Part shown: positions 496 through 37,969 of the stretch, in pieces
Numbering within the stretch: the stretch's first letter is position 1
How the letters are laid out: each line of letters starts with the position of its first letter
Assembly: GCA_943359595.1 (NCBI GenBank)
Contig: CALRIA010000004.1
Coordinates: 1-40,082 of the forward strand
DNA length: 40,082 nucleotides
From: Candidatus Magasanikiibacteriota bacterium
Lineage (GTDB): Bacteria; Patescibacteriota; Patescibacteriia; Magasanikbacterales; GWA2-37-8
Reading direction: 5' to 3'
Translations under genes and position numbers: made by a program
Notes under the pieces: generated by a model
Seen by the model: only the letters and a program-made list of their open reading frames with translations
The model's database searches: none
Told to the model about the DNA's origin: nothing

Positions 496-1098
496 ATGTA
501 TTCACCCACTATCAACAAATTGATTGGGATTTTAAAAAAACTACCATCGGTTGGACAACATACCGCTGAACGGTATGTTTTTCATTGGCTAAAATCTGGT
601 AAGGTAGAAGTTAATGAACTTAGGAACGCTTTAGATAACTTATTAAAAAATATCAAGAGTTGTGAAATTTGTTGGAACTTTTCTGATTTTACTCCCTGTG
701 AAATTTGCGCCAAGAAAGATCGCAATCAAACTCAAATTTGTGTGGTCGACGAAGCTCAGGCTGTCGCCGCTTTGGAAAAAACTGGAGCGTACACTGGTGT
801 TTATCACATTTTGCGTGGAACTATTGATGTCGGTAATGAAACTGGATTGGCGGAATTAAAAATTCATGAGCTGTTAGAGCGTATTAAAATAAATGAACAG
901 TTACAAGAGATAGTTTTAGCACTGAATCCTGATATGCCTGGAGAAACTACTATGTTATATTTGGAAAAACAGATAAAACAGATAAAACCACAAATTAAAA
1001 TATCTAGGCTAGCTCGAGGTTTGCCGATGGGATCTGATTTACAATATAGTGATGAAATTACTTTGGGTAGCGCGTTAAAAAACCGTTTCTCAAATTAA
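496..1098 (+). CDS. recR: Recombination mediator RecR
   Basis: HhH LPSVGQHTAER, C4 zinc finger CEIC...CEIC, TOPRIM region, C-terminal SRLARGLPMGSDLQYSDEITL. Confidence 0.97.
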   Translation: MYSPTINKLIGILKKLPSVGQHTAERYVFHWLKSGKVEVNELRNALDNLLKNIKSCEICWNFSDFTPCEICAKKDRNQTQICVVDEAQAVAALEKTGAYTGVYHILRGTIDVGNETGLAELKIHELLERIKINEQLQEIVLALNPDMPGETTMLYLEKQIKQIKPQIKISRLARGLPMGSDLQYSDEITLGSALKNRFSN

Positions 1099-1127
1099 AA
1101 AACCCTCGAAAATTTCGAGGGTTTTTT
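1097..1127. terminator. Bidirectional intrinsic terminator between convergent recR and rplU
   Basis: AAAAAACCCTCGAAA-A-TTTCGAGGGTTTTTT is a perfect inverted repeat with A and T tracts. Confidence 0.9.
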
Positions 1128-1144
1128 AATTTTTGTTTTTTAGA

Positions 1145-1465
1145 TTAAACAATTTCCACTTCAGTGAATCTCTGTCTCTGACCGTGAACTTTATGAAAAC
1201 GTACTTTACTCTTGAATTTCTCAACGCGTAAAGTGCGATGTTTGCCTTGTTTTAAAACTTTGGCATTGACTACTTCACCAGCGATATAAGGTTTACCGAT
1301 TTCTACCAAATTTCCTTCTTCATCAGCTTTCAAAAGTACTTTGTCAAATTTAAAGTTTGTATCCGCCAAAACATCGATACCATCAACTTTTAATTTTTCG
1401 AATTTAAATTTTTCACCAGATTTAACAATATATTGTTTACCACCAGTTGCAATAATAGAGATCAT
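1145..1465 (-). CDS. rplU: 50S ribosomal protein bL21
   Basis: IIATGGKQYIVK N-terminus; KFKSKVRFHKVHGQRQRFTEVEI C-terminus. Confidence 0.97.
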   Translation of the reverse strand: MISIIATGGKQYIVKSGEKFKFEKLKVDGIDVLADTNFKFDKVLLKADEEGNLVEIGKPYIAGEVVNAKVLKQGKHRTLRVEKFKSKVRFHKVHGQRQRFTEVEIV

Positions 1466-1480
1466 AATTTAAGTTTAAAT

Positions 1481-1519
1481 ACCCATTTTCTAGTCCATCG
1501 AAGTTGTCCTAGTTGGGCT
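1481..1519 (-). ncRNA. Candidate structured 5' leader of rplU
   Basis: The minus strand folds as AGCCCA-A-CUAG-GA-CA-(ACUUCGA)-UG-GA-CUAG-AAAA-UGGGU, and lies between the predicted promoter and the ATG. Confidence 0.55.
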
Positions 1520-1542
1520 TACTTTAGATATAAAACGTGTTA

Positions 1543-1570
1543 ATTATAACAAAAATAAACAAAATGTCAA
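1543..1570 (-). promoter_or_regulatory. Sigma70-type promoter of rplU
   Basis: Minus strand TTGACA (1570-1565), 16 nt spacer ending TGT, TATAAT (1548-1543): perfect hexamers plus extended -10 TG. Confidence 0.85.
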
Positions 1571-37649: not shown

Positions 37650-37681
37650 AAAGCCACTTTTTACCATTTAAGTATTCAATT

Positions 37682-37969
37682 ATGTCACATAAAAAAGCGG
37701 GTGGTTCTACCCACCTAGGCCGAGATTCCGTCGCAAAACGCCTAGGAGTAAAAAAACATGACGGAGAGACTATTAAAGCTGGCATGATCATTGTCAAGCA
37801 ACGCGGTACAAAAATTAACGCTGGCAAAAATGTTTTGCGCGGTGGAGACGATACTCTATTTGCACACACTGCTGGTAAAGTAAAATTCTCCAGTCACAAG
37901 CGCCGTCGTTTTGATGGATCTTTGAAGACTGCACAATATGTAAGTGTGGTAGAACAAGCAACAAAATAA
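37682..37969 (+). CDS. rpmA: 50S ribosomal protein bL27
   Basis: [37 protein letters not shown]; short form with no N-terminal extension. Confidence 0.98.

Follow-up and report, generated by a model that had tools for sequence, protein, structure and literature searches.

A conserved hairpin in the rplU leader of a genus-level clade of Candidatus Magasanikbacteria

We found that, in one genus-level clade of CPR bacteria, the rplU gene, which encodes ribosomal protein bL21, has in its 5' leader a compact two-tier hairpin that is structured, conserved, present in single copy and held at a fixed position before the start codon. The window, the whole stretch of 40,082 nucleotides analysed here, comes from one member of this clade. 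Very probably, selection maintains this hairpin as a strand-specific element of the RNA, within the 5' leader of an mRNA that carries rplU alone. Beyond that, and judging only from its context, we regard it with some reserve as a possible translational operator specific to the lineage, whose most likely ligand is bL21.

Results

The rplU gene is located on the minus strand at 1145..1465 and encodes a bL21 of 106 aa (Pfam Ribosomal_L21p, E=2.5e-22). The perfect TTGACA/TATAAT promoter described in the original prediction is indeed present on this strand, with a 12/12 match to the sigma-70 consensus. Its -35 hexamer, TTGACA, lies at 1565..1570 (-) and is followed after a 16-nt spacer by the -10 hexamer TATAAT at 1543..1548 (-), which has a TG upstream (extended -10). 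Of the clade loci, 10 extend far enough upstream for the promoter to be scored, and there it likewise reaches 11-12/12. Transcription is predicted to start at about 1536-1538 (-), as estimated from the distance to the -10 hexamer, which would give a leader of about 71 nt. An A/U-rich 5' leader segment that includes the predicted start (1519..1538, (-)) is 100% identical in the closest relatives, and the hairpin follows 24 nt downstream of the promoter and 15 nt upstream of the rplU start codon. A CAC(T/G) motif is found 4-10 nt past the -10 hexamer of rplU in many genera, and also at rpmA of the window (1537-1539 (-) for rplU and 37654-37657 (+) for rpmA); this may be a preferred start-site context in the lineage.

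The upstream neighbour of rplU is a DUF192 gene (1596-2093, (-)). On the other side, a terminator scan located a bidirectional terminator-like hairpin at 1092..1132, beyond which lies the convergent gene recR. With the DUF192 gene upstream and the terminator and convergent recR downstream, rplU stands alone between promoter and terminator and is therefore monocistronic. The gene for bL27, rpmA, is 36 kb away at 37682-37969 and has its own promoter (TTGACA/TACAAT); its leader of about 30 nt was searched by eye for a hairpin, and none was seen. The DUF192-rplU order is widely kept: across the order, many genomes have the conserved C-terminal coding motif of the DUF192 gene just ahead of their rplU promoter.

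Every part of the structured leader that had been listed at the outset is present in the sequence, on the minus strand. The outer stem pairs its 5' arm GCCCA (1514..1518) with its 3' arm UGGGU (1481..1485), and it is separated from the inner stem by an asymmetric internal loop with a single A (1513) opposite an AAAA linker (1486..1489); in relatives this 3' side is 3-9 nt long and A-rich. The 5' arm of the inner stem (1505..1512) consists of CUAG (1512-1509), GA (1508-1507) and CA (1506-1505) and folds onto a 3' arm (1490..1497) of UG (1497-1496), GA (1495-1494) and CUAG (1493-1490), closing a 7-nt loop, ACUUCGA (1498..1504), with the core CUUCG at 1503-1499. The span of 1481-1519 needs a small correction: the hairpin occupies 1518..1481, base 1519 is an unpaired A, and the element is thus 38 nt long and not 39. 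As described, the hairpin forms a GC-richer island (GC 0.47, versus 3/18 and 1/15 G+C in its flanks), and a 15-nt A/U-rich spacer without a Shine-Dalgarno motif (1480-1466, (-)) leads to the ATG.

Folded alone, the hairpin reaches -11.0 kcal/mol (z = -2.66; 4 of 200 shuffles were as stable), and its antisense is weaker at -7.1 kcal/mol (z = -0.96). The fold of the whole 78-nt leader is ordinary (z = -0.87, 34 of 200 shuffles), and the base pairs that it draws between the start codon and the 5' leader were discounted as not significant. The sense hairpins of four relatives have z values of only -1.0 to -1.6, and antisense folding is equal or better in two of five comparisons; therefore, thermodynamics alone is insufficient to make the case. 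Two short AUG frames in the 3' half of the hairpin were considered as upstream mini-ORFs and rejected, their AUGs being lost in relatives.

A bL21 query found a match in 59 of 61 related genomes and in 80 metagenome loci besides. The closest relatives belong to Candidatus Magasanikbacteria / Magasanikiibacteriota (Patescibacteria and Parcubacteria groups at NCBI). Of the loci that encode a bL21 at least 74% identical to that of the window, 25 have upstream sequence and could be assessed (11 from genomes and 14 from metagenomes), and the hairpin precedes rplU in every one; together they hold 17 distinct leaders. The expectation that rplU has a structured and conserved leader in this CPR lineage is thereby borne out. 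Using a covariance model (R2) built from hairpin variants, we found a single copy in the window genome (0.93 Mb) and one copy each, always at rplU, in 11 of 12 same-genus genomes; in the twelfth, the contig is cut inside rplU. Being single-copy, the hairpin is not a repeat family.

The hairpin is restricted to one genus-level CPR clade. In a family survey of 100 genomes from 41 genera, 13 had a model match at E <= 0.1, and nowhere outside the genus did the model match rplU. Two model matches outside the clade (G064 and G106) were rejected after inspection as unrelated to rplU: one is a terminator-like hairpin that lacks the loop core and lies away from rplU, and the other is a 17-nt partial match. 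Among 80 rplU loci across Patescibacteria, the model matches only the 10 with a bL21 at least 75% identical. The loop core CUUCG was found in 29 of 103 rplU upstream regions, namely the 25 clade loci, one further locus (L050, see below) and 3 incidental cases (L020, L023, L053).

The comparison with relatives reveals that the leader has changed less than codon third positions have. Seven close relatives have identities to the window of 0.80-1.00 in the promoter, the 5' leader and the hairpin, as compared to 0.62-0.74 at codon third positions (the exception is L006, with a promoter 0.68 identical where its contig ends). In distant clade members, the hairpin is 0.62-0.75 identical and third positions are 0.46-0.60 identical. 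The four inner pairs A-U, G-C, C-G and A-U (AG/CU and CA/UG) and the loop core CUUCG are invariant, and the core is also found in L043, a seventeenth, divergent leader. The loop, invariant and asymmetric, points to sequence-specific recognition.

Pairing was counted in a model-fitted alignment of 16 matches (14 distinct rows), which leans towards structure; MAFFT alignments, in which the shorter variants had a misregistered outer 5' arm, were set aside in its favour. A match at L017 (E = 0.53) was removed before counting. The divergent clade member L043 and L050, unrecognised by the model at E <= 5, are outside these counts. Standard pairs fill 84.9% of 172 cells, as compared to 15-52% when the 3' partner column is slid, and G-U pairs occur in 12 cells, which fits an RNA of the rplU-sense strand. 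Double-sided changes are present in three of the five outer-stem pairs (C-G to G-C, C-G to U-A and A-U to U-A), a count attained by 4 of 500 shuffles; the score for covariation is 0.112 versus 0.083 (reached by 8 of 500 shuffles), each double change being found in one distinct sequence only (L038, L040) and 14 sequences from one clade giving low power. The covariation of the outer stem is probably real, but modest. The original prediction had staked itself on what collected rplU leaders would show, and they display conservation together with some compensatory change.

The placement of the hairpin is also constrained. Its base lies 14-17 nt from the AUG across the clade, and the distance from the -10 hexamer to the AUG is 75-78 nt, versus a median of 42 nt at 44 other rplU loci of the order (all with a promoter score of at least 10/12, and 12 of them at least 60 nt long). 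From these distances, it seems that the leader was ancestrally short and that the hairpin was inserted into it.

The symmetric tandem G-A internal loop, presented in the original prediction as a key feature, fared less well, being unconserved among the 14 distinct sequences. The two columns read G.A/A.G in six sequences, the reversed A.G/G.A in two (L038, L040) and a mixture in two others (U-A + G.G in L007, C.A + G.A in L009). One column has 8 of 14 non-standard combinations and 6 Watson-Crick or wobble pairs, the other 9 and 5, and the non-standard ones are of mixed kinds. Five sequences are fully paired there (U-A + U-G or U-A), and these also lack the two outermost inner pairs. With G.A replaced by A.G/G.A, U-A + G.G, C.A + G.A or regular pairing, it is not a conserved recognition feature; what is kept in the aligned sequences is an unbroken helix that presents the loop and not a sheared G-A platform. 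The window does resemble tandem sheared G.A and kink-turn sites in its 5'-GA-3'/3'-AG-5' between Watson-Crick pairs, but the 3-nt bulge of a kink-turn is absent from the hairpin fold.

The bL21 protein of the clade is also distinctive. All 10 aligned clade sequences have 106 aa with a 5-residue insertion (residues 27-31) after an EKL motif, whereas all 9 aligned non-clade sequences have 101 aa and no such insertion. The insertion and the hairpin share one history, and their co-occurrence is not independent support for binding of bL21.

Outside the clade, a lone metagenome contig with a bL21 57.7% identical has a nested hairpin about 14 nt before rplU (L050:1455-1487 (+)), in which the outer stem is of G+C and an inner stem of 3 bp closes a loop with CUUCGA. 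Its bL21 is without the insertion, although its leader hairpin has the same loop core. This hairpin may be a remote homologue; a closer relative of L050 was sought among 240 genomes of the order and none was found, the best identity being 63%. Several other loci have long rplU leaders of their own (65-100 nt from -10 to ATG) with unrelated hairpins: L137, L141, L018, L022, L130/L157, L131, L135, L155 and L171. The leaders of L137 and L141, which are from the same genus, are alike. That long rplU leaders differ across genera suggests repeated, independent leader elaboration. Similar G+C-rich inverted repeats were seen near rplU in L009 (upstream of the -35 hexamer) and in the leaders of L028 and L171, and these look like small dispersed repeats.

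The missing Shine-Dalgarno motif, pointed out in the original prediction, is usual in this genome and does not set rplU apart. In a crude survey that took the first ATG in each ORF of 150 aa or more, GGAG, GAGG or AGGA at -20..-4 preceded only 47 of 713 long ORFs, as compared to 37 of 711 controls (6.6% versus 5.2% in the control window), and G content drops towards start codons. The rplU leaders of other genera and rpmA of the window are likewise without a Shine-Dalgarno motif. The 3' end of the 16S rRNA carries a canonical anti-Shine-Dalgarno (G000 16S, C11:3019-4538). From these sequence counts, the genome appears to initiate translation largely without Shine-Dalgarno motifs, an SD-poor mode of initiation that has been described for Bacteroidetes. 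The 23S rRNA match of the same genome (G000:C32:5863-9061) has 3199 nt versus 2925 positions in the model, corresponding to about 270 nt of insertion(s).

An Infernal-type check against Rfam, proposed with the L21_leader of Firmicutes in mind, left the rplU leader unmatched. The L21_leader model (RF00559) had no gathering matches in the window and none at E <= 10 in 1380-1650; on the whole genome its best match was 18.7 bits, on another contig, versus a gathering score of 36. In control genomes, the same model matched 6 of 14, in 2 of them above the cut-off. An Rfam match to TrxA_thermometer (E = 4) was noise.

Other known elements were considered for the hairpin and rejected. An intrinsic terminator or attenuator does not fit, as there is no terminator-like site on the minus strand here and the hairpin is followed by AUUUAAAC. 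A cUUCGg tetraloop is excluded, as the C-G closure of UUCG is absent; the two bases flanking CUUCG are A/A, C/A, A/C or U/C, so the loop is one of 7 nt. Three true C(UUCG)G loops are present in the genome's own 23S rRNA, in different contexts. The GGA motifs of a CsrA-type site are absent in L010 and L041, and in the T-loop-like UUCGA the A is replaced by C in 7 of 14 sequences.

Discussion

The hairpin is a conserved 5' UTR structure of a ribosomal protein gene, which is one feature of the r-leader class. In Firmicutes, L21_leader precedes the rplU-(ysxB)-rpmA operon, whereas rplU in the window is monocistronic and rpmA is remote. The two share the character of a candidate cis-regulatory structure in the rplU 5' leader with a presumed ligand, but RF00559 is a 77-position model and the element described here is a 38-nt two-tier hairpin, from a CPR lineage with SD-poor translation and not from Firmicutes. 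Our hairpin is unrelated in structure to L21_leader and constitutes another r-protein leader candidate with a putative ligand. The Firmicute L21_leader, as presented by Yao et al. 2007 (PMC1913097), is itself a computational candidate only.

Narrow distribution and independent invention are a known pattern in r-protein leaders, according to the main text of Eckert and Weinberg 2020 (PMC7247131). The hairpin resembles the leaders treated there in its conserved structure, some covariation, narrow taxon and location upstream of an r-protein gene, and also in the unrelated leader inserts found for the same gene in other lineages; it differs from them in being much smaller and in its genus-level, not phylum-level, distribution. 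L21, Parcubacteria and Patescibacteria receive no mention in that main text.

How the hairpin might act can be pictured from the thrS operator of E. coli, a hairpin just upstream of the initiation region that blocks 30S binding when protein-bound. Here, a protein, most likely free bL21, would recognise the invariant CUUCG held up by the AG/CU and CA/UG pairs, which are themselves invariant, and the bound protein would block docking of the 30S subunit on the unstructured A/U-rich initiation region, which appears to stand in for a Shine-Dalgarno motif. The hairpin base, 14-17 nt upstream of the AUG, is at the 5' edge of the 30S footprint, so that a protein bound there would obstruct docking. The presumed outcome would be feedback control of bL21 synthesis. 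Among possible ligands we favour bL21, as rplU is the only gene that the element would control; the perfect promoter directly upstream and the isolation of rplU before the terminator provide supporting context. The proposed arrangement shares with thrS a sequence-specific loop 5' of the ribosome landing site, a free start codon and steric competition; it differs in that we detected no imitation of an RNA which the regulator is known to bind, in the missing Shine-Dalgarno motif and in its putative ligand.

Likeness to the rRNA site of the protein is common, but not obligatory, in r-leaders. When the 23S and 16S rRNA of the same genome were scanned with the hairpin model, only noise-level matches appeared, the best at 9.8 bits (E = 0.77), and the hairpin is thus not detectably copied from an rRNA helix. 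The literature yielded no validated bL21-mRNA interaction, and a review holds that E. coli rplU-rpmA is unresponsive to an excess of its products. In its fullest form, the proposal would be that a genus-level clade of Magasanikbacteria gained both the hairpin and the 5-residue insertion in bL21, and that the altered bL21 binds the hairpin and blocks SD-independent initiation, which would make it the first CPR r-protein operator and the first bL21-mRNA interaction. This extended scenario is doubtful, and we offer it as a speculation.

The hairpin could instead be a determinant of mRNA stability or processing that protects the rplU message from 5'-end-dependent decay, perhaps with cleavage in the A/U-rich 5' segment first, and involves no bL21 feedback. 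A stable, G+C-richer hairpin within an A/U-rich leader that leaves the start codon free would suit such a role, and so would the observation that the continuity of the helix is kept and its internal loop is not, the G.A positions being paired in type B. However, protection requires neither an invariant asymmetric loop core nor invariant inner pairs nor a fixed distance of 14-17 nt to the AUG. At about 18 nt from the predicted 5' end, the hairpin would also be far for a 5'-terminal protector, and rplU of most other genera, like rpmA of the window, manages without it. We consider this explanation unlikely.

Recognition by a trans-acting factor other than bL21 is another improbable explanation. 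The invariant loop and the fixed AUG distance would suit any sequence-specific binder, whether some other protein with affinity for RNA, a small RNA complementary to the loop, or else the 30S subunit (as a standby site or enhancer of SD-independent initiation), and no rRNA mimic was found that would single out bL21. Moreover, in a genome without Shine-Dalgarno enrichment, non-SD determinants of initiation must exist. General factors and general enhancers of initiation would nevertheless not usually act through a single-copy element found only at rplU, and no complement of the loop stands out, the 5-mer complement occurring seven times in 23S and four times in 16S rRNA, at sites whose surroundings looked ordinary.

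There is little probability that the hairpin is a functionless, lineage-specific insertion into an ancestrally short leader, kept by the youth of the clade or by promoter-proximal constraints. The limitation of the element to one genus-level clade, the short leaders or unrelated inserts (including repeat-like hairpins) of other genera and the modest covariation statistics would all be expected of such an insertion. Against it, identity at codon third positions has dropped to about 0.5, yet the loop core and four pairs are invariant, the stems stay paired through changes and the AUG spacing is held. Least probable of all is a DNA-level operator, in which the inverted repeat AGnnCA-N7-TGnnCT would act as a transcription-factor roadblock at about +20 to +55: its half-sites are invariant, with a perfect 6-N7-6 palindrome in L010 and L041, and the antisense folds as well as the sense in two of five comparisons, but conservation is highest in the asymmetric central loop core, where palindromic operators typically show the reverse, the outer stem co-varies over a linker of changing length, something that binding to DNA would not call for, and symmetry at the DNA level is broken by the G-U pairs (12 cells) and the G.A positions.

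Cis-regulatory RNAs of CPR/Patescibacteria have hardly been described so far. A search for work on ribosomal leaders, including the main text of PMC7247131, gave no CPR or L21 motif, and judged by title and abstract, the papers found on Patescibacteria and the Shine-Dalgarno sequence do not deal with leaders. The narrow clade and its uncultured organisms limit the reach of the finding either way. If bL21 does not bind, the element would be one more lineage-specific leader hairpin. If bL21 does bind, the hairpin and the protein would form a compact 38-nt protein-RNA pair and provide feedback control in an organism that apparently initiates translation without Shine-Dalgarno motifs, with the leader and the protein insertion having arisen in the same small clade.
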